Assembly (NCBI RefSeq): GCF_002854065.1
Contig: NZ_CP024147.1
Source of the DNA: Escherichia coli
GTDB lineage: Bacteria > Pseudomonadota > Gammaproteobacteria > Enterobacterales > Enterobacteriaceae
DNA: 64,000 bases
Strand: one strand, 5' to 3'
Part shown: positions 1-44,010 of the stretch, piece after piece
Numbering within the stretch: the first letter of the stretch is position 1
How the letters are laid out: every line of letters starts with the position of its first letter
Position numbers and translations under genes: made by a program
Notes under the pieces: model-generated
What the model was told of the DNA's origin: nothing
Database searches by the model: none
What the model saw: only the letters and a program-made list of their open reading frames with translations

Positions 1-122
1 GTTATGCGGTAATCATCCGTTTTCAGGACAATCTGCAATTCACTGTTTTTTTGCAACAGAACTTCAATAGACATTCTGATGATAGGATGAGTATCCATAA
101 TGATCACCGACGTTGGTTTCAT
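1..122 (-). CDS. fimZ: Fimbrial response regulator FimZ, N-terminal 40 codons only; the gene continues beyond the window start
   Basis: Reverse complement of 1-122 translates MKPTSVIIMDTHPIIRMSIEVLLQKNSELQIVLKTDDYRIT from an ATG at 120-122; position upstream of argU as in K-12. Confidence 0.7.
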   Translation of the reverse strand, partial: MKPTSVIIMDTHPIIRMSIEVLLQKNSELQIVLKTDDYRI

Positions 123-364
123 AGTTACCAGTCTCATAGGAGCGGACAATTTTCCGTTAGGGCGGTAAATTGTACTTTGATACATGAAAATACGGGTTTT
201 CTTGATTCAGACGCGCAGCGATGTGCATTTGTTTGCCGCTATAGCGAAATAAATCAGAAAATCAGACGCGGTCGTTCACTTGTTCAGCAACCAGATCAAA
301 AGCCATTGACTCAGCAAGGGTTGACCGTATAATTCACGCGATTACACCGCATTGCGGTATCAAC

Positions 365-441
365 GCGCCCTTAGCTCAGTTGGATAGAGCAACGACCTTC
401 TAAGTCGTGGGCCGCAGGTTCGAATCCTGCAGGGCGCGCCA
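365..441 (+). tRNA. argU: tRNA-Arg (anticodon UCU), argU; integration target of the prophage
   Basis: 77-nt sequence GCGCCCTTAGCTCAGTTGGATAGAGCAACGACCTTCTAAGTCGTGGGCCGCAGGTTCGAATCCTGCAGGGCGCGCCA with cloverleaf arms and UCU anticodon; 3' 45 nt repeated at 16895-16939. Confidence 0.92.
397..441. repeat. attL core: 45-bp direct repeat (3' end of argU) marking the left prophage junction
   Basis: Identical to 16895-16939. Confidence 0.85.
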
Positions 442-456
442 TTACAATTCAATCAG

Positions 457-1620
457 TTACGCCTTCTTTATATCCTCCATAATTCCAGAGTGGGACATAT
501 TTGGGACATTATCACCAAAAATGTCGTCTATTTTCCTCGCATGCTCTGTCAAATGATTAGGCGCAAGGTGAGCATACCTACGAACCATTTCTATGGACTC
601 CCATCCGCCCATTTCCTGAAGCACTGATAATGGGACGCCTGACTGAATCAGCCAGCTTGCCCAGGTGTGTCTGAGGTCATGGAAACGGAAATCTTCAATT
701 CCTGCACGACGACAAGCTGATAGCCATGATGTCTTGCTGTCGATGCGCATCTTCCTGACCGCAGGCGTTGATGTTCCATCTGCTCGCTTAGCCGCCTTGG
801 TATGTACAAACACCCATTTGTGATGCTTGCCTATTTGATCACGCAACACTTTACAGGCGGTATCGTTCAGCGCCACACCAATGGCGCGGTTTGATTTGCT
901 CTCTTCTGGATTCACCCAGGCAACTCGTCGCTGCATGTCGATTTGTTGCCATTCCAGATTTATGATGTTCGACTTTCTCAGACCAGTTGCCAGCGCAAAC
1001 TTGACGACAGATTTCAGTGGTTCGGGGCACTCATCAATAAGGCGTTTTGCTTCCTCCTTTTCCAGCCATCTGACTCGCTTGTTTCTGACCGCTGGTATCT
1101 TGATGACAGGCGCTTTTTCCAGCCACTTCCAGTCGCGTTCTGCAGCACGGAGAATGGCCTTTATCATGGCAAGATGCTTTGCCTTTGTCTGAGTTGATAC
1201 TGGCTTTGGTTCATAAACAGGCAGTTCTTTACCTTTCCTGATGGCGGCCTGAACTTTCTGTTTCCATATTTCTTTCGTCTTTCTGTTATGCATTCTGCTT
1301 ACAGCAGAGTAAATCTTTGCCTCCGAGATATCTTTAAGCCTTATACCCTCAAAATGTTCAAGCCAGAACTCAATCCGGCTTTTATCTGAATCGAGAGATT
1401 TTTTATCAGCTTTTTCCTCAAGCCATCTTAGGCAGGCCTCTTCAAAAGTGACATCAGGTAAATCCCCTAGCTTTTCTACTCGCCAGAGTTCTGCTTTTCG
1501 CTTGTCGTGCAACTCCTGAGCTTGCCGCTTGTCCTTTGTGCCAAGAGATTCCTTAATTCGTTTCCCGCCCGGGAGCGAATACGAGGCATACCATATTTCA
1601 TTTCTGCGGAAGAGTGACAT
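457..1620 (-). CDS. intD: Prophage tyrosine integrase (DLP12 IntD-like, 387 aa)
   Basis: 387-aa ORF directly adjacent to tRNA; C-terminal R..HxxR..Y catalytic region ([15 protein letters not shown]); matches remembered IntD. Confidence 0.95.
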
Positions 1621-1847
1621 TTTCTTTCCTCTGTTATGCCATCACCCGCGCTCACCTGGACAGTATGCAGCGGAGACTGAAGCGCCGCAATGCAGGCTTG
1701 CCGTGTTGTGAGGTAAGGAGATTTTGGCTTGGTTGGATCTTTACGTGTTGCCTGTAGGCGGCCTGTTCGTATCCAGTTGGTGGCGGTTGGTCTGGATATC
1801 TTAAGAAACTGACAGGCCTCATCGAGTGTGAGGCTGTATGATTCCAT
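1476..1847 (-). CDS. Excisionase-like HTH protein (Xis/AlpA type); possibly a pseudogene because it overlaps int by about 145 nt
   Basis: ORF upstream of int with HTH motif [26 protein letters not shown]; start taken at internal Met MESYSL. Confidence 0.45.
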
Positions 1848-2097
1848 GGTTACCTCTGCTTTTTGAACGCATGTCACGTAACTTCTTAATGTGTTCTGCC
1901 GTTTCGATCTCTTCTGCTATCCGATCTGCATCAGCTTTATTCACAGGTTCAAAGTCATGATTAAAGCGGAACATGCTGGCGATACATGTTCTGCCTTTTC
2001 GGATGTAGTGAACTTTGTTGTGGGTAGAACGCAGGATTTTGCAGGGAGTGCCGTGGTGGTCGACGTACCAGGTGTTAGGAAAAATGATTCTGAACAT
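1819..2097 (-). CDS. Hypothetical prophage early-region protein (92 aa)
   Basis: ORF only; position between xis and the TraR-like gene; no recognised motif. Confidence 0.3.
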   Translation of the reverse strand: MFRIIFPNTWYVDHHGTPCKILRSTHNKVHYIRKGRTCIASMFRFNHDFEPVNKADADRIAEEIETAEHIKKLRDMRSKSRGNHGIIQPHTR

Positions 2098-2144
2098 TTT
2101 TACACCTCAGTTGGACGATGTTGAAATTTGCTGCTTTGAGGCCA

Positions 2145-2363
2145 TCACAGTCCCCATTGTTTGTTCTTAAGTTCGATCTCCTCCTGGCAACTCGCACAAG
2201 TCCGACAACCCTGAACAGCCAGGCGTCTTCGCTCATCTATCGGATCGCCACACTCACAACAATGAGTTGCGGATACAGTCTGGTAGTTCAGACGACGCAT
2301 TTTTATTGCTGTATTGCGCTGTAATTCTTCGATTTCTGATGCTGAATCAATGATGTCTGCCAT
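2145..2363 (-). CDS. TraR/DksA-family C4 zinc-finger protein (phage TraR-like, 72 aa)
   Basis: 72 aa with CxxC-(17)-CxxC (CCECGDPIDERRRLAVQGCRTCASCQ), typical of the TraR/DksA C-terminal zinc finger. Confidence 0.6.
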   Translation of the reverse strand: MADIIDSASEIEELQRNTAIKMRRLNYQTVSATHCCECGDPIDERRRLAVQGCRTCASCQEEIELKNKQWGL

Positions 2364-2590
2364 CTTTCATTAATCCCTGAATTGTTGGTTAATACGCTTG
2401 AGGGTAAATGCGAATAATAAAAAAGGAGCCTGTAGCTCCCTGATGATTTTGCTTTTCATGTTCACCGTTCCTTAAAGACGCCGTTCAACATGCCGATCGC
2501 CATGCTTAAATGAGTCGGTGTGAATCCCATCAGCGTTACCGTTTCGCGGTGCTTCTTTAGTATCTGGCTGAAAGAGGGGGTTATTAAGGC

Positions 2591-2953
2591 GTGAATACCT
2601 ACAGCATCACATTACCCTGGCCTCCGAGCAATAATCGCTATTACCGCCATAATCGCGGGCGCACGCACGTCAGCGCAGAGGGGCAGGCATACCGCGATAA
2701 CGTCGCCCGAATCATTAAAAACGCAATGCTGGATATCGGCCTGGCTATGCCTGTGAAAATCCGCATTGAGTGCCACATGCCGGATCGCCGTCGCCGTGAC
2801 CTGGATAATCTGCAAAAAGCCGCTTTTGACGCACTCACTAAAGCAGGTTTCTGGCTGGATGATGCTCAGGTCGTTGATTACCGCGTTGTGAAGATGCCTG
2901 TTACCAAAGGTGGGAGGCTGGAACTGACCATCACCGAAATGGGGAATGAATGA
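2591..2953 (+). CDS. rusA: Holliday-junction resolvase RusA (120 aa)
   Basis: 120 aa [18 protein letters not shown]... matching remembered RusA. Confidence 0.93.
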
Positions 2954-3090
2954 TGTTTGAGTTTTATATGGCAGAACTTCTTCGCCACCGCTGGGGGCAT
3001 CTGCGCTTATATCGTTTCCCCGGTTCTGTTTTGACCGATTACCGAATACTGAAGAGTTACGCCAAAACCCTGACAGGAGCAGGAGTATGA
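2950..3090 (+). CDS. ylcG: Small prophage protein YlcG (46 aa)
   Basis: ATG overlapping rusA stop; translates [46 protein letters not shown]; below the ORF-track size cutoff. Confidence 0.6.
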
Positions 3091-3175
3091 AGTCAGAGAT
3101 AACAATCAACTAATACTGTTTTGTTGATTTTTGCTTGTAATTGGCGTTTTGGTCTGATTTTTGTGGAGTAAGTTG

Positions 3176-3559
3176 ATGCGTGATATTCAGATGGTTCTTG
3201 AGCGTTGGGGAGCGTGGGCGGCTAATAATCATGAAGATGTGACCTGGTCGTCCATTGCCGCCGGTTTTAAGGGATTAATTCCTTCAAAAGTAAAATCTCG
3301 CCCGCAATGTTGTGACGATGACGCGATGATCATTTGCGGGTGCATGGCCCGTCTGAAAAAGAACAACAGCGATTTGCACGATTTATTAGTAGATTATTAT
3401 ATAGTCGGTATGACATTCATGTCACTGGCAGGTAAGCATTGCTGCTCTGATGGTTATATCGGGAAAAGGTTACAAAAGGCTGAGGGCATAATTGAAGGGA
3501 TGTTAATGGCATTAGATATCCGGTTAGAGATGGATATCGTTGTTAATAACTCTAATTAA
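3176..3559 (+). CDS. quuD: Late-gene antiterminator Q (QuuD-like, 127 aa)
   Basis: [24 protein letters not shown]... matches remembered DLP12 QuuD; start taken at second Met of the track ORF. Confidence 0.85.
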
Positions 3560-3584
3560 TACGCCAATTATTTACTAAAAGTTA

Positions 3585-3622
3585 TTAAAAATGGGGCGTT
3601 GAAGCGCCCCCAAAAATAAAGG
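3585..3622. terminator. Bidirectional rho-independent terminator between quuD and nmpC
   Basis: GC hairpin GGGGCG-ttgaa-GCGCCCC flanked by A-run upstream and A/T-run downstream. Confidence 0.5.
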
Positions 3623-3747
3623 GTAATATATAACAGAAGGTTTGTATAGTTAGAAGCAAGGTTGTGCTTCTAAAGGAAGTGGCTTGAGGGAGCCACTTAT
3701 ATGTTGGGGAGGCAAAGCCTCCCACAACATATCTTTTAGTAATCAAA

Positions 3748-4830
3748 TTAGAACTGGTAAACCATACCTACAGCAACGATATCATCGGTAGCAACGCCAG
3801 ATGCTTTCGTGAAATCGCTCTTATCAATCAGGTTGATTTTGTAGTCAACAAAAGTGGACATATTTTTGTTGAAGTAATAGGTTGCACCTACATCAACATA
3901 TTCAACCAGGTCCTGATCACCCCAAACACCCAAGTCTTTTCCTTTAGAATGCAGGTAAGCAACGGATGGACGCAGGCCGAAGTCGAACTGATATTGTGCA
4001 ACAGCTTCGAAGTTTTGTGCTTTGTTGGCAATATGGTTATTACCAAAAACAGTCATGTTCTGGGTTTCAGAATAGGTGGTGGCCAGATAGATGTTGTTCG
4101 CATCATATTTCAGACCAGCTGCCCATACTTCAGCATTTTGACCAGAAGCATTCAGACCGTTGTTACCGTAGATAACCTGATTATTAGTGCGATCAGATTT
4201 AGCATAGGTTGCACCCACGCCGAATCCTTCATACTCATAAGTAGTTGAGAAACCGAAACCATCGCCATTAGCTTCAGTTACTTCATTTCGGTCATTTTTG
4301 CCCTGATACTGAGCTGCAAAGTTCAGGCCATCAACCAGACCAAAGAAGTCGTTGTTACGATAAGTTGCAACACCTGTGGTGCGACCAGTCATGAACACAT
4401 CTGTTTGGGTCCAGGTATCGCCACCGAATTCTGGCAGAACGTCAGTCCACGCACCGATGTCGTATGCTACACCGTAGTTACGGCCGTAATCGATTGAGCC
4501 GTAGTCACCGAATTTCAGGCCAGCGAAGGCAAGACGGGTTTTATCTTTGGAGGAACCTTGAGATTCAGCGCGGTTGCCTTTGAATTCATATTCCCACTGA
4601 CCGAAACCAGTCAGTTGATCGTTGATTTGGGTTTCACCTTTGAAGCCAAGACGGGCATAAGTAGTATCACCATCATCTGCATCATTAGAGGAGAAGTAGT
4701 GCTTAGCATTAACTTTCCCGTACAGATCCAGCTTGTTACTGTCTTTATTATAAATTTCAGCTGCCTGAGCAGACATCGCCATCAGTACTGATGCAGCTAC
4801 AGCAGAAATTGCCACTGTTAATTTTTTCAT
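3748..4830 (-). CDS. nmpC: Outer-membrane general porin NmpC/OmpD-like, apparently intact (360 aa)
   Basis: Signal peptide [23 protein letters not shown], porin beta-barrel sequence ending in C-terminal F; uninterrupted here (K-12 copy carries IS5). Confidence 0.9.
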
Positions 4831-5258
4831 CGTGAGCCCTTTTTTTTGAACTATTATTAAAAAATGATGTCACTGCGCGATAAATATTCATCTAATCAAT
4901 GTGATTATTTCAAGATGTAAGTTTTGGTTTCTCGTTTAATTTGTGAAGTAGATCTCTATTTTTATCTGAACTTTTTTCTATCGAATCCTATTCATGGCTC
5001 TTGGCTGAATAAAAATAAATCTATTAGCCAATTTATATTAATGGCTGTTATTTATAAGTGCTCTATAATTTGAAGGTTCAATTTAAATTGGCTAAAAATA
5101 ACGCTGGAAATTATTTGTTGGTTATTTGTTGAGATTTTCTTATGTATTTGTAGTGGTGTTTTCAATACTCGGTAGCATTCTCGCAAATATCATTTAGTGG
5201 TTTACGTACGTAAAAAATTGGTTATGCTGTTAAGAGTGGTTACTTCGTTACACAGCTT

Positions 5259-5291
5259 AAACCCGCCGTCGAGCGGGTTTTTCCATTTTTT
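5259..5291 (+). terminator. tR'-like terminator in the late leader upstream of the lysis genes (Q antitermination target region)
   Basis: Hairpin AACCCGC-cgtcga-GCGGGTT followed by TTTTCCATTTTTT. Confidence 0.45.
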
Positions 5292-5403
5292 GAGTCTCGA
5301 TATTAGCTGATAACCCAATACCTGAGTTATTCACTGACTCCGAGTCTGTTACGTTTCGTAGTATTCCCTCAATTTACACCCGCTTTGTCTGCGAGGTGGG
5401 GTT

Positions 5404-5619
5404 ATGAAATCCATGGATAAGTTAACAACGGGTGTCGCCTATGGCACCTCAGCAGGTAGTGCCGGGTACTGGTTTTTACAGCTGCTCGATAAAGTCACGC
5501 CCTCACAGTGGGCAGCAATAGGTGTGCTGGGTAGCCTGGTATTTGGCCTGCTGACGTACCTGACAAACCTTTATTTCAAGATTAAAGAAGATAAGCGCAA
5601 GGCTGCGAGAGGTGAATAA
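5404..5619 (+). CDS. essD: Phage holin (EssD-like, 71 aa)
   Basis: 71 aa with hydrophobic TM segments and charged C-terminus; first gene of lysis cassette. Confidence 0.9.
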
Positions 5620-6116
5620 TGCCTCCATCATTACGAAAAGCTGTTGCTGCTGCTATTGGTGGCGGGGCTATTGCTATAGCATCTGTGTTAATCACTGGCC
5701 CAAGTGGTAACGATGGTCTGGAAGGTGTGAGACATAATCCTTACAAAGACATAGTTGGTGTATGGACTGTATGTTACGGGCATACAGGAAAAGACATCAT
5801 TCCCGGTAAAACGTATACCGAAGCAGAGTGCAAAGCCCTCCTGAATAAAGACCTTGCCACTGTCGCCAGACAAATTAACCGGTACATCAAAGTCGATATA
5901 CCGGAAACAACGCGCGGCGCTCTTTACTCGTTCGTCTACAACGTGGGTGCTGGCAATTTCAGAACATCGACGCTTCTTCGCAAAATAAACCAGGGTGATA
6001 TTAAAGGCGCATGTGATCAGCTACGGCGCTGGACATACGCTGGCGGTAATCAATGGAAAGGACTGATGACTCGCCGTGAGATTGAGCGTGAAGTCTGTTT
6101 GTGGGGGAAACAATGA
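5619..6116 (+). CDS. rrrD: SAR endolysin / lysozyme (RrrD-like, 165 aa)
   Basis: N-terminal signal-anchor-release segment [18 protein letters not shown] followed by lysozyme domain; ATGA overlap with holin stop. Confidence 0.9.
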
Positions 6117-6571
6117 GCAGAGTAACCGCGATTATCTCCGCTCTGGTTATCTGCATCATCGTCTGCCTGTCATTGGCTGTTAATCATTACCGTGATAACG
6201 CAATCGCCTACAAAGAGCAGCGCGATAACAAGGCCAGTGAACTGGAGAAGGCGAACGCCACCATCGCTGACATGCGGAAGCGTCAACGTGATGTAGCAGA
6301 ACTCGACGCAAGATACACAAAGGAGCTTGCTGATGCTAACGCGACTATCGAAAGTCTCCGTGCTGATGTTTCTGCTGGGCGTAAGCGCCTGCAAGTCGCC
6401 GCCACCTGTGCAAAGTCAACGACCGGAGCCAGCGGCATGGGCGATGGAGAAAGCCCAGGACTTACAGCAGATGCTGAACTCAATTATTACCGTCTCCGAA
6501 GTGGAATCGACAAGATAACCGCGCAGGTTAACTACCTGCAGGAATACATCAGGACGCAATGCCTGAAATAA
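6113..6571 (+). CDS. rzpD: Spanin inner-membrane subunit Rz (i-spanin)
   Basis: N-terminal TM helix then coiled-coil-rich periplasmic domain; ATGA overlap with endolysin; diverges from K-12 RzpD. Confidence 0.85.
6327..6518 (+). CDS. rzoD: Spanin outer-membrane lipoprotein Rz1 (o-spanin), embedded in the +1 frame of Rz
   Basis: Lipobox LLGVSAC followed by proline-rich segment [13 protein letters not shown]; wholly inside Rz in another frame; exact start uncertain. Confidence 0.7.
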
Positions 6572-6602
6572 TTTTTTTGCAAATCACAAAGTCCATTTAA
6601 TG

Positions 6603-6866: not shown

Positions 6867-7265
6867 ATGGAATTGGCAAGTGAATTTTCTGGCATGCTTA
6901 AGTCGTCAGGTGTTCGGTCAGCGTTCTTTGTTGAAATGCTGATGCACGGCGGACTTATGGCAACAATGAGACGTGTAATGGAAGACCAGAGAAAAGAACC
7001 TCCTCAGGTATACGTTTTGTCATCGAAGAAAACTGGGCTAACCAAAATTGGGTATTCATCCAACATTCCACAACGCATCAAATCGCTTGGCAACTCTGGA
7101 CCAGACTGCTTGAAGCTTGAGTGCCTGATCCCTGGTGGAAGAGAAACTGAAAACATGCTTCATCGCAAATTTGCCGCAAAGAGAAAGCACGGTGAATGGT
7201 TCGCCCTGTCCAAGGATGACATTGAGGGATTGAAATCTGTAGCGATTACTTCTGATGGCTATTAA
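6867..7265 (+). CDS. T5orf172 / GIY-YIG-like domain protein (132 aa), prophage accessory gene
   Basis: Motif block VYVLSSKKTGLTKIGYSSNIPQRIKSL...ENMLHRKFAAKRKHGEWFAL resembles the T5orf172 (MUG113) fold; N-terminal 45 aa unassigned. Confidence 0.5.
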   Translation: MELASEFSGMLKSSGVRSAFFVEMLMHGGLMATMRRVMEDQRKEPPQVYVLSSKKTGLTKIGYSSNIPQRIKSLGNSGPDCLKLECLIPGGRETENMLHRKFAAKRKHGEWFALSKDDIEGLKSVAITSDGY

Positions 7266-29426: not shown

Positions 29427-32400
29427 ATGATTGAATGGATTATTCGTCGCTCGGTGGCGAACCGTTTTCTGGTGCTGATGGGCGCGTTGTTTCTGAGTAT
29501 CTGGGGCACCTGGACCATCATTAACACGCCAGTGGATGCACTGCCGGATCTCTCCGATGTGCAGGTGATTATTAAAACCAGCTATCCCGGGCAGGCACCG
29601 CAAATCGTTGAAAATCAGGTGACTTATCCGCTAACTACCACCATGTTGTCGGTACCTGGCGCGAAGACTGTGCGCGGTTTCTCGCAGTTTGGCGACTCTT
29701 ATGTGTATGTCATTTTCGAAGATGGCACCGATCCGTACTGGGCGCGCTCGCGGGTGCTGGAGTACCTCAACCAGGTACAGGGTAAGCTGCCTGCGGGAGT
29801 CAGCGCCGAGCTGGGGCCAGATGCCACGGGTGTTGGCTGGATCTATGAATATGCATTGGTGGATCGCAGCGGTAAGCACGATCTGGCCGATTTACGCTCA
29901 TTGCAGGACTGGTTTCTCAAATATGAGCTAAAAACCATCCCTGACGTTGCGGAAGTGGCGTCGGTGGGCGGTGTGGTGAAAGAGTATCAGGTGGTTATCG
30001 ATCCCCAGCGCCTGGCGCAGTATGGCATCAGTCTCGGCGAAGTGAAAAATGCGCTGGATGCTTCAAACCAGGAAGCGGGCGGTTCGTCGATCGAACTGGC
30101 GGAAGCGGAATATATGGTGCGCGCCAGCGGCTATCTGCAAACGCTCGACGACTTTAATCACATCGTTTTAAAAGCCAGTGAAAATGGCGTGCCCGTTTAT
30201 CTGCGTGATGTTGCGAAGGTCCAGGTTGGCCCGGAGATGCGCCGGGGCATTGCCGAACTGAACGGCGAAGGCGAAGTTGCGGGCGGGGTGGTGATCCTGC
30301 GCTCCGGCAAAAACGCCCGAGAAGTGATCGCCGCCGTGAAGGACAAACTGGAAACGCTGAAAAGTAGTCTGCCGGAAGGCGTGGAGATAGTTACAACATA
30401 CGATCGCAGCCAGCTCATTGACCGGGCCATCGACAACCTCAGCGGCAAGTTGCTGGAAGAGTTTATTGTGGTGGCGGTAGTCTGTGCGCTGTTTCTCTGG
30501 CATGTGCGCTCGGCGCTGGTGGCGATTATTTCGTTGCCGCTGGGGTTGTGTATTGCTTTTATTGTCATGCACTTCCAGGGACTGAATGCCAATATTATGT
30601 CGTTGGGTGGCATTGCGATTGCCGTCGGGGCGATGGTCGATGCTGCTATCGTCATGATCGAGAATGCGCATAAACGGCTGGAAGAGTGGCAGCACCAGCA
30701 TCCTGACGCCACGCTGGATAATAAAACGCGCTGGCAGGTGATCACCGATGCGTCTGTTGAAGTGGGGCCGGCGCTGTTTATCAGTCTGCTGATTATCACG
30801 TTGTCGTTTATCCCGATCTTCACCCTGGAAGGGCAGGAAGGGCGTCTGTTTGGCCCGTTGGCGTTCACCAAAACGTATGCGATGGCGGGTGCGGCGCTGC
30901 TGGCGATCGTAGTGATCCCTATCCTGATGGGTTACTGGATCCGTGGCAAAATTCCGCCGGAAAGCAGTAACCCGCTCAATCGCTTTTTGATTCGTGTTTA
31001 TCATCCGCTATTGCTGAAAGTACTGCACTGGCCGAAAACCACGCTGCTGGTGGCAGCGCTTTCGGTGCTGACGGTTCTCTGGCCGCTCAATAAAGTTGGC
31101 GGGGAGTTTTTACCGCAGATCAATGAAGGCGACTTGTTATATATGCCATCGACGCTGCCGGGGATCTCCGCAGCAGAGGCGGCGAGTATGCTGCAAAAAA
31201 CCGACAAGCTGATTATGAGCGTACCTGAAGTGGCGCGGGTATTTGGCAAAACCGGGAAAGCGGAAACCGCCACCGATTCTGCTCCGCTGGAGATGGTAGA
31301 AACGACCATCCAGCTTAAGCCGCAGGATCAGTGGCGGCCAGGCATGACAATGGACAAAATCATTGAGGAACTGGATAACACCGTGCGTCTGCCGGGGCTG
31401 GCGAATCTGTGGGTGCCGCCAATTCGTAACCGTATCGATATGCTCTCAACCGGCATTAAAAGCCCCATCGGCATTAAAGTTTCCGGCACTGTGCTGGCGG
31501 ATATCGACGCGATGGCGGAGCAAATTGAAGAAGTGGCGCGAACGGTGCCAGGCGTAGCTTCTGCGCTTGCCGAGCGTCTGGAAGGTGGGCGCTATATCAA
31601 CGTTGAGATTAACCGTGAAAAAGCCGCGCGTTACGGTATGACGGTGGCGGATGTGCAGTTGTTTGTGACTTCTGCGGTGGGCGGGGCGATGGTTGGCGAA
31701 ACGGTGGAAGGGATTGCCCGTTATCCCATTAATCTGCGTTATCCGCAAAGCTGGCGCGATAGTCCGCAGGCACTGCGCCAGTTGCCGATCCTGACGCCGA
31801 TGAAGCAGCAAATCACCCTGGCAGACGTGGCCGACGTTAAAGTCTCTACCGGACCGTCGATGCTGAAAACCGAGAATGCGCGCCCGACGAGCTGGATTTA
31901 TATCGATGCCCGCGATCGTGACATGGTATCGGTGGTTCACGATTTGCAAAAAGCGATAGCTGAAAAAGTGCAGTTAAAACCGGGCACCAGCGTGGCATTC
32001 TCCGGGCAGTTCGAGCTACTGGAGCGCGCCAACCATAAGCTGAAACTCATGGTGCCGATGACACTGATGATCATCTTCGTGCTGTTGTATCTGGCATTCC
32101 GTCGGGTGGGCGAAGCGTTGCTGATTATCAGCAGCGTACCGTTTGCGCTGGTGGGCGGCATCTGGTTGCTGTGGTGGATGGGCTTTCATCTTTCTGTGGC
32201 GACGGGCATCGGTTTTATTGCCCTTGCCGGGGTCGCCGCCGAATTTGGCGTGGTGATGCTGATGTATTTACGTCACGCCATAGAGGCCGAGCCGTCGTTG
32301 AATAATCCGCAAACATTCAGCGAGCAGAAGCTGGATGAGGCGTTGTATCACGGCGCGGTACTGCGCGTGCGCCCGAAAGCGATGACGGTGGCGGTGATTA

Positions 32401-35470: not shown

Positions 35471-36124
35471 TTACACTTCGGTTAAGGTGATGTTTTGCGG
35501 CAGACGAGATTTCGGCAGCGTAGCGTTAAAATCTTCAACGCTGTGATGACCTACCGGAACAACCACCAGACTGGTGTAGCCTTTCTCTTTCAGACCAAAT
35601 TCTGCATCGAGGATGGCGGCGTCAAAACCTTCGATGGGTACCGCGTCCAGACCCAGAGCCGCCACGCCGAGCAGGAAGTTACCGACGTTGAGATAAACCT
35701 GTTTTGCCATCCACTCTGCATCATCATGCAGATCTTTACGGTGCATATCAGCGAAGAACTTGCGACCTTTATCGTTCGCGGCTTTCGCTTCCGGCGTGGC
35801 AAAGCGGCCATCGGCATCTTCCTGGTCAACAACCAGCTTCAGCCAGGCATCGTCCATCGCGGTTTTTGCACAGAACACCACGACGTGCGAGGCATCAAGC
35901 ATTTTACGCTCGTTGAACACGTAATTACCGGCAGCGGATTTGGCAACACGCGCTTTACCTTCTTCCGTGCTGGCAACAATAAAATGCCACGGCTGGGAGT
36001 TGGTGCTGGACGGGCTGTATTGCAGTAGCGTTTTGATCTGCTCGGCCTGTTCCGGGGTAAGTTTTTTGCTGGCATCAAATGCCTTAGTGGAATGACGCTT
36101 TAAGGCGACAGAAATGATATCCAT
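35471..36124 (-). CDS. nfsB: Oxygen-insensitive NAD(P)H nitroreductase NfsB (217 aa)
   Basis: From [50 protein letters not shown]. Confidence 0.9.
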
Positions 36125-36217
36125 AAAGACTCCATGTGTAAGTAATTTTGCGTGCCAGCAGATTACAAGGTTCAACGAGAAATGGTAAGCGAGAAAAATG
36201 CGCTATAGATTTCCGCT

Positions 36218-36586
36218 TTACCCTGGACGCACTCTTTTTTGATCGCGTTTAGCTAAGCCATCAACCACCAGATTCCACGAATCGTTGATCAGATCGCAAA
36301 GTAACGCTGCGGAGATTTCCTCGCCGGGATAAACCGAAATCCAGTGCTTTTTATTCATGTGATACCCTGGCTTAATGCTCGGGTATATCTGCTGATTTAA
36401 CAGGGATTTTTGTGGATCGGACTTCAGATTGATAAACGGAATGCCGCGCATCTCCGACGACAACATAAAAATCTTGCCGCCAATTTTAAAAACATCGAAC
36501 TCCGGGCCAAACGGCCAGCAAAGCTCGACAAAAGGTAGCTCAAGGGCCAGGCGTTTCGCCGTTTCGTGCAGTGATTGCTTATCCAT
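36218..36586 (-). CDS. ybdF: Uncharacterised protein YbdF (122 aa)
   Basis: ORF and conserved position. Confidence 0.8.
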
Positions 36587-36649
36587 AAACTTTCCTTAGG
36601 CGAAGGAGAATAAGCAAAGTATGCCGCGAAGTTCGGCGATAATCGACGT

Positions 36650-36898
36650 TTAATCCGCCAGCGAGAACCAGCGTCGCCAGATAAAGCGCAGAATAAAATA
36701 CTCGATAGCGCCCAGCGCTAAAAACCACAGGCAAAACAATAAAGTGTAAAGCTGGCTAAGATCCATCAGATGGAACGTGGTCACCAGTTTCTGTGCCAAC
36801 GTCAGTCCCAGTGCGGGGGCGGGCAGCAGCAGGCAAGAGAGGAAAGCCATCAGTAAAATGCCTGCTGCGGTGGTCAAGGTTTCTAAAGGGTGTTTCAT
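36650..36898 (-). CDS. ybdJ: Small membrane protein YbdJ (82 aa)
   Basis: ORF with two hydrophobic helices; conserved position. Confidence 0.8.
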   Translation of the reverse strand: MKHPLETLTTAAGILLMAFLSCLLLPAPALGLTLAQKLVTTFHLMDLSQLYTLLFCLWFLALGAIEYFILRFIWRRWFSLAD

Positions 36899-36963
36899 AA
36901 CATTGTTAAATGTAAGTTAAAACACCATTGTCAGGGATATTCTTCTGTAAGGCAATTCCCGAC

Positions 36964-38091
<1,128 letters not shown>

Positions 38092-38531
38092 TTATGTTGG
38101 CGTTTTCTATTCAGTATAGAAGTCGGAGCGGCTGGGCGAGATGCGGAAGTTCTGGAATGTTTCTTTTTTTGGTGATGGTGAACTGATGGTGCCTGAAGCA
38201 ATTTGGCTACTTTTGCAATGTGACAAGTTATGGCACGGCTGGCTGGTGGCGAAGAATTTTGACGATTGAGGCATGCAGAAAAAACGGGCTCAGCTTCAGT
38301 TGATTAAATGAGGAGTGAGAAGTCCGAAACAGGATTTACTGTATAAATAAACAGCTATTTTGTTGAGGAAGGGTAAGATAACGGCGGGTGCCTGAAGCTT
38401 TCCGGTTTCAGGTTTACTCTGAGGTCTGGAAAGATGAAGCCCCAGGAGATATTTCTATCAACCCTGGGGCTGCCACTCCAAACCAGACAATTTGGATGGT
38501 AGTTCCTTCTTCGCATGGAGGCAATATAAAC

Positions 38532-38684
38532 ATGCTGACGAAATATGCCCTTGTGGCAGTCATAGTGCTGTGTTTGACGGTACTGGGATTTACGCTTCTG
38601 GTCGGAGACTCGCTGTGTGAGTTTACGGTGAAGGAACGTAATATTGAGTTCAGGGCTGTTCTCGCTTACGAACCGAAGAAGTAG
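38532..38684 (+). CDS. hokE: Hok-family membrane toxin, copy 1 (50 aa)
   Basis: [50 protein letters not shown]. Confidence 0.85.
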
Positions 38685-39034
38685 CCGTTGTGCGGGGAGT
38701 AATCCCCGCATATCCGGTTGTCAGGTCAGGATGGTAAGGCACCTGCTTTACACTTTCGCCCGCGGTCAGTGATGGCTGCGGGCGGTTTCGTTTTAAGAGC
38801 AATGATGAGTTTTGCCGACAGAAGTCCGAAACAGGATTCACTGTATAAATAAACAGCTATTTTGCTAAGGAAGGGTAAGATAACGGCGGGTGCCTGAAGC
38901 TTTCCGGTTTCAGGTTAACTCTGAGGTTTGGAAAGATGAAGCCCCAGGAGATATTTCTATCAATCCTGGGGCTGCCACTCCGAACCTGAACAACTCGGAT
39001 GGTAGTCCCTTCTTCGCATGGAGGCAATATAAAC

Positions 39035-39187
39035 ATGCTGACGAAATATGCCCTTGTGGCAGTCATAGTGCTGTGTTTGACGGTGCTGGGATTTACGCTT
39101 CTGGTCGGAGACTCGCTGTGTGAGTTCACCGTAAAGGAACGTAATATTGAGTTTAAGGCTGTTCTCGCTTACGAACCGAAGAAGTAG
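39035..39187 (+). CDS. hokE: Hok-family membrane toxin, copy 2 (50 aa; R42K relative to copy 1)
   Basis: [50 protein letters not shown]. Confidence 0.85.
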
Positions 39188-39308
39188 CCGTTGTGCGGGG
39201 AGCAATCCCCGCATATCCGGTTGTCAGGTCAGAGTGGTAAGGCACCTGCTTTACACTTTCGCCCGCAGTCAGTGATGGCTGCGGGCGAATCGTACCAGAT
39301 GTTGTCAA

Positions 39309-39929
39309 TTAATCGTGTTGGCACAGAGTTATGACTATTTTTTCTTTTATCTGCCAGTGCACAGCAAACATCTCATTCTCACGATGAATGATGATCTGCT
39401 GTTTATTCCAGCTAATTATCTGATAGTCCAGAAAACCTGCATCAGTTTGGATCTCACTTGCCTTAAATGCGCTCTCTTTGGCGGAAAATGCCAGTGTCAG
39501 CGCCAGAGAAAAGGCTAAACCGCAGTCTGCGAGTCGCTCGTGTTCTGCTGGTGTAATAATGTTGTCTGTCAATTCGGTCGCTGTTTGCGCAGAAAAAATT
39601 TCTTCGATATCAACGCCAATCGGTTGACGGGAAACCACGGCTAATGCCGTAGCCCCGCAGTGGCTAATACTGCCGTATACCTCCGCAGGCCACACCGGTT
39701 GGCGTAGCTCGCCGATTGCGGGCACACATTTATAGCCATATTCCCGCAAGGCATAAACAGCAGCGATCCGTCCGGCTAAATGCTCTGTTTTACGTTTACG
39801 TCCAGCGTGTTGCAGTTGTGCGTAGTGCGGCAGCCAGAGTAAATCCTGCTCACAAAAATTCGCCGGATCGAACTCAACAAAATGCAGCGTATGTCCGGCA
39901 AAGGGGAGGGAGGTATGCGTAGTTTTCAT
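39309..39929 (-). CDS. entD: 4'-phosphopantetheinyl transferase EntD
   Basis: From MKTTHTSLPFAGHTLHFVEFDPANFCEQDLLWLPHYAQLQHAGRKRK... Confidence 0.85.
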   Translation of the reverse strand: MKTTHTSLPFAGHTLHFVEFDPANFCEQDLLWLPHYAQLQHAGRKRKTEHLAGRIAAVYALREYGYKCVPAIGELRQPVWPAEVYGSISHCGATALAVVSRQPIGVDIEEIFSAQTATELTDNIITPAEHERLADCGLAFSLALTLAFSAKESAFKASEIQTDAGFLDYQIISWNKQQIIIHRENEMFAVHWQIKEKIVITLCQHD

Positions 39930-39964
39930 ATCGACCATATTCGAGACTGATGACAAACGCAAAA

Positions 39965-40085
39965 CTGCCTGATGCGCTACGCTTATCAGGCCTACATGGT
40001 CCTGCAATATATTGAATTGGCAAGATTTTTGTAGGCCGGATAAGGCGTTCACGCCGCATCCGGCATGAACGACGCGCACTTTGTC
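39965..40085. repeat. REP (repetitive extragenic palindromic) elements between entD and fepA
   Basis: GCCTGATGCGCTACGCTTATCAGGCCTACA and GTAGGCCGGATAAGGCGTTCACGCCGCATCCGGCA motifs. Confidence 0.5.
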
Positions 40086-40103
40086 AACAATCTGACGTTA
40101 GCA

Positions 40104-42344
40104 TCAGAAGTGAGTGTTTACGCTCATATACCACGTACGTCCCGGCTCGTTATAGGTATACGCCCCGGCACCGGCGATATAGTTGGCCCCTGCCAAATCG
40201 CCCGTGGTCTGGGCATTACCCGCACGCCACAAACGTTTGTCGAACAGATTGTCCACGCCGCCGGTCAGACTGACATTCTTCGTCACATCCCACGTCGCGC
40301 TCAGCCCAACAATGCTGTAAGGACTAATTTCTTTGGTTTCCGGTCCAACCGCTGGCTGACCTTTATAGTTGTACTTCTTCGGCTGCTGCTTACCGTACCA
40401 GGTGAAGGTCGTTTGCATCGACAAATCTTCTCGTGCCTGCCAGCTCAGCGTTGAGTTCAACGTATACTCCGGGATGATCGACAAACGGTCGCCCGTGGTT
40501 TTGTTTTCACTCTTCAGCATATAAGTGATGTTATTAGTCCACATCACCGTTTCGCTAACCGGTACGTTTAACGATCCTTCCAGACCTTCAACCACCGCTT
40601 TCGGCACGTTATCCCACTGATAGAGATCGGTGCCGACTGCGTTTTGCCCTACAGCAACATAGCCTGCTTCAATCTTATTGCGATAATCGTTGCGGAACCA
40701 GGTCACACCCGCCAGCCAACCGTCGCGTTTGAACTCCAGACCAATCTCCTTGTTGATGCTGGTTTCTGCTTTCAGGTCATCGTTACCTTGCAGATAGCAG
40801 CCGCCCGCGCTGGCATAGCAGCCCTGGCCTTTACTATAGAGGATATAGTTAGGGTTAGTCTGGTACAGGCTCGGCGCTTTATAAGCACGGGCAATGCCCA
40901 TTTTGAGCGTGAAGTCATCGCCTAAACCTTGCGATATGTTCAGCGCCGGGCTCCAGTTATTGCCGACAATACTGTGATGATCGAAACGCAGCCCCGGCGT
41001 TACGATGGTGCTGTCAGTCAGCTCCATGTTGTTTTCGGCAAACAGCGAGAAAATTTCTGCTTTTGAATACGGGCTACGGTCGGTGGCACTCACGCCATCA
41101 ATAGCGCCACCGGTATTCGTTCCGGTCAGTGCCTGGGTGTTGGAACTTAAGTCCTTCATCCGTTGCTGATTCCACTCCGTACCCAGCGTCAGCGTTTGGT
41201 TAACGAGGAAATCAATCGGCAGGTTAACTTCGCTGTGCAGCATCACGTCATCAAGATCGATATCGACGAAATCCTGTGTCGCTTTTTCGTTAAATTTCCC
41301 TTCGGTGCCACCCGCCAGACCTTCCGGAATACGCGAGTTACGGGTGTGTTCATACTGCACCCAGTTGCTGGTGGTCACGCCGTTATCCCAGCCGCCGTTC
41401 CAGGTCAGCGAGTAGTTCTGGCGATACAGGCGGTTGGTTTCATCGCCATATTTCGAGCGAGTATAGGAGTCAGAGTTGGTGTTCTGGGTATCGCCCGCAT
41501 ACAGGTTACCCTGGCGGCTGTAGCCCGCTTCCAGTTCCAGCGATTGCAATGGTGCGAAGTCCCAGCGCACCACGCCGTTAATATCTTTATTGATCACCCC
41601 TTCGCGCCCGGCTGGTAACGTCGTGGCATACGTTCCGGCACGCGCGGACTGATGGCCCTGGTTGATATCCCACGCGTCAGCCTGAGTTTTGTCGAGGTTG
41701 CCATACAAGCGGAAGCTGAATTCGTCGCCCAGCGGACCGGTCAGGCTAAAGTTAGTGCGTTTGGTGGCACCTTCCTCTTTATGTTCTGGCGCATTGAAAT
41801 ATGCGTCCCAGGAGCCGTGCCACTCGCCGCTGCCTTTTTTGGTAATGATGTTAACCACGCCGCCCGCCGCGCCGTTGCCATAACGCGCAGCTGCCGGACC
41901 ACGCAGAACTTCAATACGTTCAATCATTTCAGGTGGCACCCAGGAGGTATCACCACGGGTATCGCGCTCGCCACGCCAGCCCTGGCGCACCGAGTTACGG
42001 CTGCTTACCGGCTTGCCGTCAATCAAAATCAGCGTGTTTTCCGGACCCATACCGCGAATATCAATCTGTCGGTTATTCCCTCGCTGACCACTGGTGGAGT
42101 TACCGGTCAGGTTAACGCCTGGCATGGTACGGATGATCTCCGACACATCGCGGGCAACGGGGTTTTTGCGGATTTCATCTGCGGTGATGGTCGAAACGCC
42201 AGGCGCCTGTAAGTTCTGCTCGGCGGCGGTAACGACAATGGTATCGTCATGTGAAACAGGAGTATCGGTCGGCTCTTGTGCCTGCGCTACCCCATAAATC
42301 CCCAGATTGACCAACAAGGCCATGGAATGAATCTTCTTGTTCAT
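40104..42344 (-). CDS. fepA: TonB-dependent ferric enterobactin outer-membrane receptor FepA (746 aa)
   Basis: From MNKKIHS...; TonB box DTIVVTA; C-terminal aromatic residue. Confidence 0.95.
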   Translation of the reverse strand: MNKKIHSMALLVNLGIYGVAQAQEPTDTPVSHDDTIVVTAAEQNLQAPGVSTITADEIRKNPVARDVSEIIRTMPGVNLTGNSTSGQRGNNRQIDIRGMGPENTLILIDGKPVSSRNSVRQGWRGERDTRGDTSWVPPEMIERIEVLRGPAAARYGNGAAGGVVNIITKKGSGEWHGSWDAYFNAPEHKEEGATKRTNFSLTGPLGDEFSFRLYGNLDKTQADAWDINQGHQSARAGTYATTLPAGREGVINKDINGVVRWDFAPLQSLELEAGYSRQGNLYAGDTQNTNSDSYTRSKYGDETNRLYRQNYSLTWNGGWDNGVTTSNWVQYEHTRNSRIPEGLAGGTEGKFNEKATQDFVDIDLDDVMLHSEVNLPIDFLVNQTLTLGTEWNQQRMKDLSSNTQALTGTNTGGAIDGVSATDRSPYSKAEIFSLFAENNMELTDSTIVTPGLRFDHHSIVGNNWSPALNISQGLGDDFTLKMGIARAYKAPSLYQTNPNYILYSKGQGCYASAGGCYLQGNDDLKAETSINKEIGLEFKRDGWLAGVTWFRNDYRNKIEAGYVAVGQNAVGTDLYQWDNVPKAVVEGLEGSLNVPVSETVMWTNNITYMLKSENKTTGDRLSIIPEYTLNSTLSWQAREDLSMQTTFTWYGKQQPKKYNYKGQPAVGPETKEISPYSIVGLSATWDVTKNVSLTGGVDNLFDKRLWRAGNAQTTGDLAGANYIAGAGAYTYNEPGRTWYMSVNTHF

Positions 42345-42504
42345 TGTTTTATTCCTGCATTTTTGCCACGAATTGCAACTGTCGGGCATGGTCGTCCTCA
42401 ACACGACGCATCCCGCTACCGCGAAAACCTTTGATCCTGAAAGACACGCAGTGCAGTTGGTTAATTAATGTCCGCGCTTCCCACGGCGCGCCATTACGCT
42501 ATTG

Positions 42505-42545
42505 CAAATGCAAATAGTTATCAATAATATTATCAATATATTTCT
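42505..42545. promoter_or_regulatory. Fur box(es) in the bidirectional fepA / fes-ybdZ-entF promoter region
   Basis: GCAAATGCAAATAGTTATCAATAATATTATCAATATA resembles overlapping GATAATGATAATCATTATC hexamer arrays. Confidence 0.55.
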
Positions 42546-42586
42546 GCAATCAATGAAAAATTGCACAGTAAACATGGGGTTATGGT

Positions 42587-43789
42587 GTGACGGCGTTAAA
42601 AGTAGGAAGTGAGAGCTGGTGGCAGTCGAAACATGGCCCGGAATGGCAGCGTCTGAATGACGAAATGTTTGAGGTCACTTTCTGGTGGCGTGATCCCCAA
42701 GGTTCTGAAGAATACTCGACGATAAAGCGCGTATGGGTCTACATCACTGGCGTGACTGATCACCATCAGAACAGCCAGCCCCAGTCGATGCAGCGAATTG
42801 CAGGTACTGATGTCTGGCAGTGGACGACACAACTCAATGCCAACTGGCGCGGCAGCTACTGCTTTATTCCCACCGAACGCGATGACATTTTTTCTGCACC
42901 ATCCCCCGATCGCCTCGAATTACGTGAAGGCTGGCGAAAACTATTACCCCAGGCAATAGCCGATCCGCTGAATCCACAAAGCTGGAAAGGCGGGCGAGGG
43001 CACGCTGTTTCTGCACTCGAAATGCCGCAAGCGCCTCTGCAACCGGGATGGGATTGTCCGCAAGCGCCAGAAATACCAGCCAAAGAAATTATCTGGAAAA
43101 GTGAACGGTTGAAAAATTCACGTCGTGTATGGATTTTTACCACCGGCGATGTAACAGCAGAAGAACGCCCGCTGGCAGTTTTGCTCGATGGCGAATTTTG
43201 GGCGCAAAGTATGCCCGTCTGGCCTGTGCTGACTTCGCTGACCCATCGTCAGCAACTTCCTCCCGCCGTGTATGTGTTGATCGACGCTATCGATACCACG
43301 CACCGCGCCCACGAACTGCCGTGTAATGCGGATTTCTGGCTCGCAGTACAGCAAGAGTTATTACCCCTGGTGAAAGCTATTGCCCCTTTTAGCGATCGTG
43401 CCGATCGCACCGTGGTTGCCGGGCAGAGTTTTGGTGGGCTTTCCGCGCTGTATGCCGGACTGCACTGGCCTGAACGCTTTGGCTGTGTATTAAGCCAGTC
43501 AGGATCGTACTGGTGGCCGCATCGGGGCGGGCAGCAAGAGGGCGTGTTACTTGAAAAGCTAAAAGCTGGTGAAGTTAGCGCCGAAGGTCTGCGCATTGTG
43601 CTGGAAGCGGGTATTCGCGAGCCGATGATCATGCGGGCCAATCAGGCGCTGTATACGCAATTACACCCTATAAAAGAATCCATTTTCTGGCGTCAGGTTG
43701 ACGGCGGACATGATGCGCTTTGTTGGCGCGGTGGCTTGATGCAGGGGCTAATCGACCTCTGGCAACCACTTTTCCATGACAGGAGTTGA
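42587..43789 (+). CDS. fes: Enterochelin esterase Fes
   Basis: 400-aa ORF with esterase GxSxG motif (GQSFGG). Confidence 0.9.
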   Translation: MTALKVGSESWWQSKHGPEWQRLNDEMFEVTFWWRDPQGSEEYSTIKRVWVYITGVTDHHQNSQPQSMQRIAGTDVWQWTTQLNANWRGSYCFIPTERDDIFSAPSPDRLELREGWRKLLPQAIADPLNPQSWKGGRGHAVSALEMPQAPLQPGWDCPQAPEIPAKEIIWKSERLKNSRRVWIFTTGDVTAEERPLAVLLDGEFWAQSMPVWPVLTSLTHRQQLPPAVYVLIDAIDTTHRAHELPCNADFWLAVQQELLPLVKAIAPFSDRADRTVVAGQSFGGLSALYAGLHWPERFGCVLSQSGSYWWPHRGGQQEGVLLEKLKAGEVSAEGLRIVLEAGIREPMIMRANQALYTQLHPIKESIFWRQVDGGHDALCWRGGLMQGLIDLWQPLFHDRS

Positions 43790-43791
43790 AT

Positions 43792-44010
43792 ATGGCATTC
43801 AGTAATCCCTTCGATGATCCGCAGGGAGCGTTTTACATTTTGCGCAATGCGCAGGGGCAATTCAGTCTGTGGCCGCAACAATGCGCCTTACCGGCAGGCT
43901 GGGACATTGTGTGTCAGCCGCAGTCACAAGAGTCCTGCCAGCAGTGGCTTGAAGCCCACTGGCGTACTCTGACACCGGCGAATTTCACCCAGTTGCAGGA
44001 GGCACAATGA
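43792..44010 (+). CDS. ybdZ: MbtH-like protein YbdZ (72 aa)
   Basis: MAFSNPFDDPQGAFYILRNAQGQFSLWPQQCALPAGWD... with MbtH tryptophans. Confidence 0.85.
   Translation: MAFSNPFDDPQGAFYILRNAQGQFSLWPQQCALPAGWDIVCQPQSQESCQQWLEAHWRTLTPANFTQLQEAQ

Follow-up and report, generated by a model that had tools for sequence, protein, structure and literature searches.

A small open reading frame (ORF) lies at the left end of a cryptic prophage in the Escherichia coli contig NZ_CP024147.1 (assembly GCF_002854065.1), next to a deletion in the phage early region. The locus raises two questions: what the ORF encodes, and whether it has been retained because the host makes use of its product. We addressed them in a stretch of 64,000 nucleotides, referred to below as the window.

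Location of the ORF in a truncated prophage

The window starts with fimZ and argU, followed by a DLP12-type cryptic prophage with the gene order intD, xis-like ORF, DUF4222, orf73, rusA, ylcG, quuD, nmpC/ompC-type porin and the lysis genes essD-rrrD-rzpD. Beyond the lysis genes, the annotation of the closely related strain 100416 shows decayed terminase and tail genes. The features surrounding the ORF are as follows.

365..441, plus strand: tRNA-Arg(UCU) gene argU, DLP12-type attachment site (ARAGORN and Rfam tRNA; same layout as argU-intD of K-12)
457..1620, minus strand: intD integrase gene, left prophage end (Pfam Phage_integrase, E 5.2e-47; RefSeq intD)
1476..1877, minus strand: xis-like excisionase ORF, probable start ATG 1847 (PHROG 2907, E 4.4e-46; 81% identity to SfI Xis, 116 aa)
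1819..2097, minus strand: DUF4222 gene directly 3' of orf73 (Pfam DUF4222, E 1.9e-19; PHROG 285; SfI_0030 at the same position)
2145..2363, minus strand: orf73 ortholog, 72-aa TraR-family C4 zinc-finger protein, predicted RNA polymerase secondary-channel binder (Pfam, PHROG, identity to the lambda and SfI proteins, fold)
2370..2465, minus strand: small upstream ORF, 31 aa from GTG or 29 aa from ATG 2459 (annotated in SfI as SfI_0032)
2462..2562, minus strand: 3' remnant of an exo-xis ORF, its 5' end cut by the deletion (alignments to lambda, SfI and APEC_AN-25)
2562..2563, no strand: deletion junction at the end of exo-xis homology, joining the exo-xis region to the 28 nt that precede the rusA start codon
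2591..2953, plus strand: rusA, first gene to the right of the deletion (Pfam RusA, E 6.9e-23; RefSeq)

The small upstream ORF ends with a stop codon 6 nt ahead of the orf73 start codon, and the lambda ORF in the corresponding position has the same translation, MNMKSKIIRELQAPFLLFAFTLKRINQQFRD. In the 100%-identical RefSeq record, the exo-xis remnant is given as a pseudogene "missing N-terminus". Only 227 nt separate orf73 from rusA. The initial annotation had described the early region as gutted, and this is indeed the case: pL, N, cI, cro, O, P, exo-bet-gam and most of the nin region were lost at the junction, and the exo-to-ybcO genes of fuller relatives are absent from the window.

Two neighboring genes differ in condition from the corresponding records. 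The xis-like ORF at 1476-1877 (minus strand) looks full length, the PHROG 2907 match spanning all 117 profile positions, whereas RefSeq shows only a 66-nt "helix-turn-helix" pseudogene fragment there in the identical record; its identity to SfI Xis falls over the final ~30 residues, the part of the ORF that overlaps int. The nmpC/ompC-type porin gene (3748-4830, minus strand, 360 aa) is intact in the window, whereas nmpC of K-12 is interrupted by IS5.

Identification of the ORF as an ortholog of lambda orf73

A single ORF with an ATG start occupies 2145..2363 on the minus strand and encodes a protein of 72 residues, MADIIDSASEIEELQRNTAIKMRRLNYQTVSATHCCECGDPIDERRRLAVQGCRTCASCQEEIELKNKQWGL (ORF listing of the window). 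The initial annotation had named a search against the DksA/TraR family HMM as the check on its assignment. This search was run and gave a significant match to Pfam PF01258 (zf-dskA_traR) with 37.3 bits and an E value of 2.8e-9, above the gathering score of 24.9. The protein also matched PHROG 54, "DksA-like zinc-finger protein", over residues 1-70 (E 3.6e-26), and its significant sequence relatives in the PDB were YbiI (the best, E 1.2e-5) and F-plasmid TraR only. Judged from these profile matches, the relationship to the family is far beyond chance. The protein shares 87% identity (62/71 residues) with lambda Orf73 and is 100% identical to SfI_0031 of the functional phage SfI; RefSeq names the identical protein WP_000763385.1 "TraR/DksA family transcriptional regulator".

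The dN/dS value of the minus-strand frame against lambda orf73 was 0.18, and 0.11 for codons 1-60, which indicates that the minus-strand frame is the coding one. This comparison with lambda reflects selection in phages. An overlapping ORF on the plus strand (2118..2324) gave no family match and was regarded as spurious.

The score of the protein against TIGR02419 (C4_traR_proteo), 53.9, was under the curated cut-off of 59.7 bits. As controls, F TraR scored 80.5 and lambda Orf73 54.7. Because the functionally validated lambda Orf73 is also below the cut-off, we ascribe the shortfall to the model and not to a loss of family features. Neither equivalog model was reached (F TraR NF010268, 25.8 vs 108; YbiI NF008243, 42.8 vs 96), and the Pfam search gave no Ogr/Delta family match. 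By these scores the protein is a family member but the equivalog of neither F TraR nor YbiI. The idea of a defence-system component was dropped, the sole PADLOC match to the protein being a meaningless 13.7 bits. Judged by sequence, this is an intact TraR-family gene orthologous to orf73 of phage lambda, and it is already known, correctly annotated and very common.

Conserved residues and predicted fold

Four hallmarks of TraR and Orf73 have been published (PMC9239242, PMC8614690): an N-terminal DxxDxA motif (TraR D3, D6 and A8), which extends to the active-site region of RNA polymerase; a zinc finger of the form CxxC-17-CxxC; the counterparts of two TraR arginines, R48 (rim helices) and R49 (beta-prime Si3), within ExxRK/ExxRL; and a C-terminal helix with an acidic residue touching beta Si1. 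The window protein carries every one of them (D3, D6, A8; C35/C38/C56/C59; E44-x-x-R47-L48 with R46/R47; E64). Its cysteines have the spacing C35-x2-C38, 17 residues, C56-x2-C59, and this C4 arrangement is a predicted zinc finger. Two further cysteines are present, C36 and C53. The length of 72 aa fits the TraR-like range of ~70-75 aa, and the protein aligns to DksA residues about 69-151, the C-terminal half.

D3, D6, A8 and E64 are invariant in the alignment of the window protein, lambda Orf73, TraR and DksA. Of 81 family representatives, 71-81 conserve each of the hallmark positions other than E44 and L48. D6 and A8 each occur in at least 78/81; R46 and R47, which align with TraR R48 and R49, are R in 79/81 and 75/81, respectively; and the position of E64 is E or D in 79/81. 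E44, the E of ExxRL, is E in 53/81 representatives, and L48 is variable.

The AlphaFold model, built on the alignment of the 81 representatives, had a mean pLDDT of 86.6 and consists of a helix (2-22), the finger and a helix (57-66). Its best Foldseek matches in the PDB were TraR in RNA polymerase complexes (6n57_M and 5w1s_M, TM 0.63-0.66), followed by YbiI and DksA. A TraR-like fold of helix, zinc-finger globule and helix is predicted for the protein by this model. The TraR/DksA-like zinc-finger identity first read from the ORF was thus borne out by HMMs, motifs, the predicted fold and the 87% identity to lambda Orf73.

Comparison with known relatives

The lambda counterpart is the ORF at lambda 30,392-30,613, between ea22 and orf61, which is unannotated in NC_001416. 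Lambda Orf73 has the same DxxDxA, the same six cysteines including both extra ones, and the same ExxRL as the window protein, and the upstream small ORF, the predicted terminator/promoter (t2/p1) element and the ribosome-binding region are the same. The gene also has the position of orf73 in the exo-xis region: it lies on the leftward (pL) strand, between orf61-type ORFs and xis-proximal genes, with the small ORF and the t2 hairpin before it. Nine substitutions distinguish the two proteins (window residue, position, lambda residue: Y27H, T29A, V30I, A49V, E62D, I63L, K66I, N67S and W70R). The C-terminus of the window protein is divergent and shorter (72 aa vs 73 aa in lambda Orf73). Homology to lambda stops within the last ten codons, and the downstream neighbor is DUF4222 in the window, in contrast to ea22 in lambda. 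Unlike its lambda counterpart, orf73 of the window has been severed from pL and N by the deletion.

The closest arrangement was that of phage SfI, a serotype-converting phage of Shigella flexneri, in which the order is N...cIII-kil-gam-bet-exo...small ORF-orf73-DUF4222-xis-int-attP. The orf73-DUF4222-xis-int module is the same and the protein is 100% identical. The shared order and protein indicate that the left end of the window prophage is the same module as in a functional phage. In SfI, the gene stands within a complete N-to-int leftward operon, whereas the operon in the window is truncated. Near-identical variants of the protein are also encoded by many genes named "DksA-like zinc-finger protein" in Stx and lambdoid phages.

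F-plasmid TraR (PDB 5W1S and 6N57) belongs to the same length class and shares the motifs and the predicted three-element fold, but is only about 30% identical to the window protein. TraR is encoded in a conjugation operon and orf73 in a phage early operon, and TraR activates some promoters, whereas lambda Orf73 does so weakly if at all (PMC9239242). In regard to DksA, a host cofactor of the stringent response, the C4 finger and DxxDxA of the window protein align with its globular domain and coiled-coil tip, and DksA and lambda Orf73 share one binding site on RNA polymerase (PMC9239242). The window protein corresponds to the C-terminal half of DksA only, without the coiled coil and without the ppGpp-binding residues; TraR-type proteins act without ppGpp.

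Proposed mechanism of the protein

Lambda Orf73 competes with DksA for RNA polymerase and inhibits rrnB P1 (IC50 ~50 nM) in a ppGpp-free reaction for which D3 and D6 are needed (PMC9239242). It slows host growth and raises the phage yield 3- to 4-fold, and single-copy, pL-driven Orf73 lowered the plating efficiency about 10^4-fold (PMC9239242). The statement in the initial annotation that phage TraR homologues can reprogramme host transcription is upheld by the literature (PMC9239242).

By analogy with lambda Orf73, we infer the same RNA polymerase mechanism for the allele in the window. As expected from lambda Orf73 and F TraR, the protein would bind RNA polymerase and not DNA. The N-terminal helix, with D3-x-x-D6-x-A8, would pass along the secondary channel as far as the active-site region, the globular domain with the zinc finger (C35/C38/C56/C59, R46 and R47) would sit on the beta-prime rim helices and touch beta-prime Si3, and the C-terminal helix (E64) would touch beta Si1. 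RNA polymerase bound in this way would change shape, so that promoters with short-lived open complexes, such as those of rRNA and ribosomal-protein genes, would be inhibited independently of ppGpp. In intact lambdoid phages, orf73 is a delayed-early gene of the pL operon and raises the phage yield. The potency of the window allele could differ from that of lambda Orf73, since five of the nine substitutions fall in segment 62-70, the expected contact with beta Si1.

Expression signals upstream of orf73

In the window, the deletion has taken away both the native promoter, pL, and the gene for the antiterminator, N. The following element lies directly upstream of orf73.

2413..2450, minus strand: hairpin and T-run, identical to the published predicted terminator t2 of lambda/phi24B and overlapping the predicted promoter p1

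For both lambda and phi24B, Bloch et al. predicted a terminator (t2) shortly before orf73 and, with BPROM, a promoter (p1) that overlaps it (PMC4195576). This 38-nt t2/p1 element is kept base for base at window positions 2413-2450, compared with the sequence printed in PMC4195576. The terminator scan placed a terminator-like hairpin at 2441..2423, with an RNA folding energy of -14.7 kcal/mol (z = -3.05). The p1 prediction (BPROM) corresponds in the window to a -35 element TCATCA at 2446..2441 and a -10 element TTTTATTAT at 2422..2414. It is a poor match to the consensus: the -35 element agrees at 3/6 positions and p1 failed the consensus scan. That scan, covering 1400-5400, gave no sigma-70-like site for the minus strand between positions 2364 and 3396. 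Upstream of orf73, the closest gene in the same orientation is the porin gene, which has a terminator-like site of its own after it, at 3610..3593.

The strongest match between 1400 and 5400 was a near-consensus sigma-70-like site at 3396-3425 on the minus strand (GTGACA, 18 nt, TATAAT; 11/12), which is antisense within quuD and directed toward rusA and orf73. As a promoter of orf73, this match (3425..3396) was set aside, the t2 hairpin lying in between.

In H2O2-induced phi24B, the mRNA of orf73 and ea22 was above that of the other tested genes, and lambda orf73 mRNA was below that of the upstream genes, which was ascribed to terminator t2 (PMC4195576). A literature search for experimental mapping of a terminator or promoter between orf61 and orf73 of lambda gave in-silico predictions only (PMC4195576). 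Judging from the retained element, low or conditional expression of orf73 via predicted p1 is possible. Given the 10^4-fold loss of plating with pL-driven Orf73, strong constitutive expression would be counter-selected. Most likely, the gene in the window is silent or weakly transcribed.

Distribution of orf73 and probable origin of its retention

Copies of orf73 with at least about 90% nucleotide identity were found in 3298/5426 complete E. coli genomes and in 514 phage records, and a scan of 1.84 billion representative proteins gave 613 related clusters at E <= 0.001. The uninterrupted deletion junction is much rarer: it occurs in 2/5426 genomes, those of strains 100416 and CUWW06 only, and the deletion therefore looks recent. 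The intD segment is present in 1591 of the 5426 genomes and the contiguous intD-to-orf73 block in at most 778 of these; about half of the intD-bearing elements lack orf73. DLP12 of K-12 is among these, having the order intD-xisD'-exoD'.

Independent deletions with different endpoints were found in APEC_AN-25, UTME-9 and ET776. At the same site, APEC_AN-25 has kept orf61-, orf63- and orf60a-type genes, which adjoin a truncated ybcN, and UTME-9 carries an IS3 plus extra genes. The remnant in ET776 (L005 3743-5202), at the lambda att site by ybhC, arose independently, and in it orf73 and orf61-/orf63-/orf60a-type genes directly abut a truncated nuclease gene and rusA. Lambdoid remnants seem to have lost the exo-to-nin interval repeatedly. 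In the argU remnants that we inspected, the protein was identical except for one substitution in UTME-9, with 0-2 nucleotide differences in the gene. These differences are too few for a dN/dS test of selection in the remnant state, and the identity would fit constraint and a recent origin alike.

About 1.9 kb separate orf73 from attL, and the gene forms the distal end of the leftward operon. It probably survives because the attL-proximal int-xis-DUF4222-orf73 block falls outside the deletion, and deletions of the pL-proximal early, immunity and replication genes that stop before int-xis will tend to spare it. We therefore infer that orf73 is a passenger. The initial annotation had taken its retention in the gutted region as a sign of a host-directed function. 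Retention for a host function is unsupported by the comparative evidence, given the junction in 2/5426 genomes, the block in at most 778/1591 intD genomes, the K-12 DLP12 without the gene and the deletion of pL and N; nor is it refuted, p1 being retained.

Evaluation of alternative explanations

The best PDB sequence match, YbiI (E 1.2e-5), and the weak matches to the YbiI and TraR equivalog models would favor another zinc-finger protein, either a YbiI-type host protein, F TraR proper or a P2 Ogr-type late activator. However, the YbiI match covers the finger only (residues 31-67), the equivalog scores are far under their cut-offs (42.8 vs 96 and 25.8 vs 108), Pfam gave no Ogr/Delta family match, and the 87% identity to lambda Orf73 is full-length and accompanied by a syntenic exo-xis position. 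Such a reading is effectively refuted by these comparisons already, and we give it almost no weight. It is very unlikely that the ORF is intact and its product inactive, with C-terminal differences or extra cysteines abolishing RNA polymerase binding. The protein is one residue shorter than lambda Orf73 and has 5/9 of its substitutions in residues 62-70, but E64 and the helix are preserved. Moreover, the divergent tail is unlike random decay, because it coincides with a module boundary, at which lambda homology stops and ea22 gives way to DUF4222. The extra cysteines, C36 and C53, have been suggested to disturb the folding of lambda Orf73 (PMC9239242); they are nevertheless common to the active lambda protein. 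Further evidence against inactivity is that the functional temperate phage SfI encodes the identical protein, and many Stx and lambda-like phages near-identical variants.

A third explanation concerns the host: orf73, expressed from p1 at a low level or under stress (e.g. oxidative), would be a domesticated regulator, a ppGpp-independent brake on ribosome synthesis kept by selection. The ORF is intact with all functional residues and the published predicted p1 is kept exactly, yet p1 is a BPROM prediction with a -35 match of 3/6 that failed the consensus scan. The phi24B data, with orf73/ea22 mRNA above the other tested genes after H2O2 (PMC4195576), agree with stress expression, whereas in lambda orf73 mRNA is lower than that of upstream genes, ascribed to t2 (PMC4195576). 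Several independent early-region deletions end before orf73; on the other hand, about half of the intD elements, including that of K-12, are without the gene, the junction is rare and probably recent, and the 0-2 substitutions in the remnants are too little divergence for showing constraint. Expression of Orf73 is also costly for growth. We consider domestication unlikely on balance. The full proposal, that orf73 is transcribed from predicted p1, perhaps in response to oxidative stress, and is a domesticated regulator that slows rRNA and ribosomal-protein transcription of the host independently of ppGpp, we regard as quite improbable. By contrast, it is probable that the gene is an intact TraR-family orf73 ortholog, with an RNA polymerase-binding mechanism assigned by homology, carried as a passenger in a DLP12-type remnant.

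Other observations in the window and in a related strain

Positions 1-6600 of the window are 100% identical to strain 100416. Positions 36000-44000 are identical to strain CUWW06 and are without the IS421 insertion of strain 100416; coordinates of the strain 100416 record are not transferable to the distal window because of this IS421 difference, and the window comes from a third strain closely related to these two. The plus strand has two Rfam matches to the sok antitoxin (CssrC), spaced about 500 nt apart (38386-38540 and 38888-39043), and an ES036 (CssrF) sRNA match lies near the pair at 39988-40029 (minus strand). The sok matches suggest tandem hok/sok-type loci between the ybd genes and the enterobactin (ent/fep) genes. 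An Rfam IS009 RNA match (10578-10776, plus strand, 229.5 bits) is located within the decayed late prophage region. Past the lysis cassette, a 132-aa ORF (6867-7265, plus strand) has the RefSeq name GIY-YIG nuclease family protein and a weak PADLOC match to the candidate defence family PDC-S57 (E 4.3e-6). In the strain 100416 record (L006 22422-24608), RefSeq lists nfrB, which encodes the phage N4 adsorption glycosyltransferase, as a pseudogene with an internal stop.

Significance of the stranded gene

As it stands, the gene is a matter of routine annotation: the family is characterised, the RefSeq name is correct, and about 60% of complete E. coli genomes carry close copies. The sole pointer to expression of the stranded copies is a predicted promoter. 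If they are expressed, cryptic prophages would give many E. coli strains an extra, ppGpp-independent modulator of RNA polymerase, with a bearing on growth-rate control and stress tolerance.
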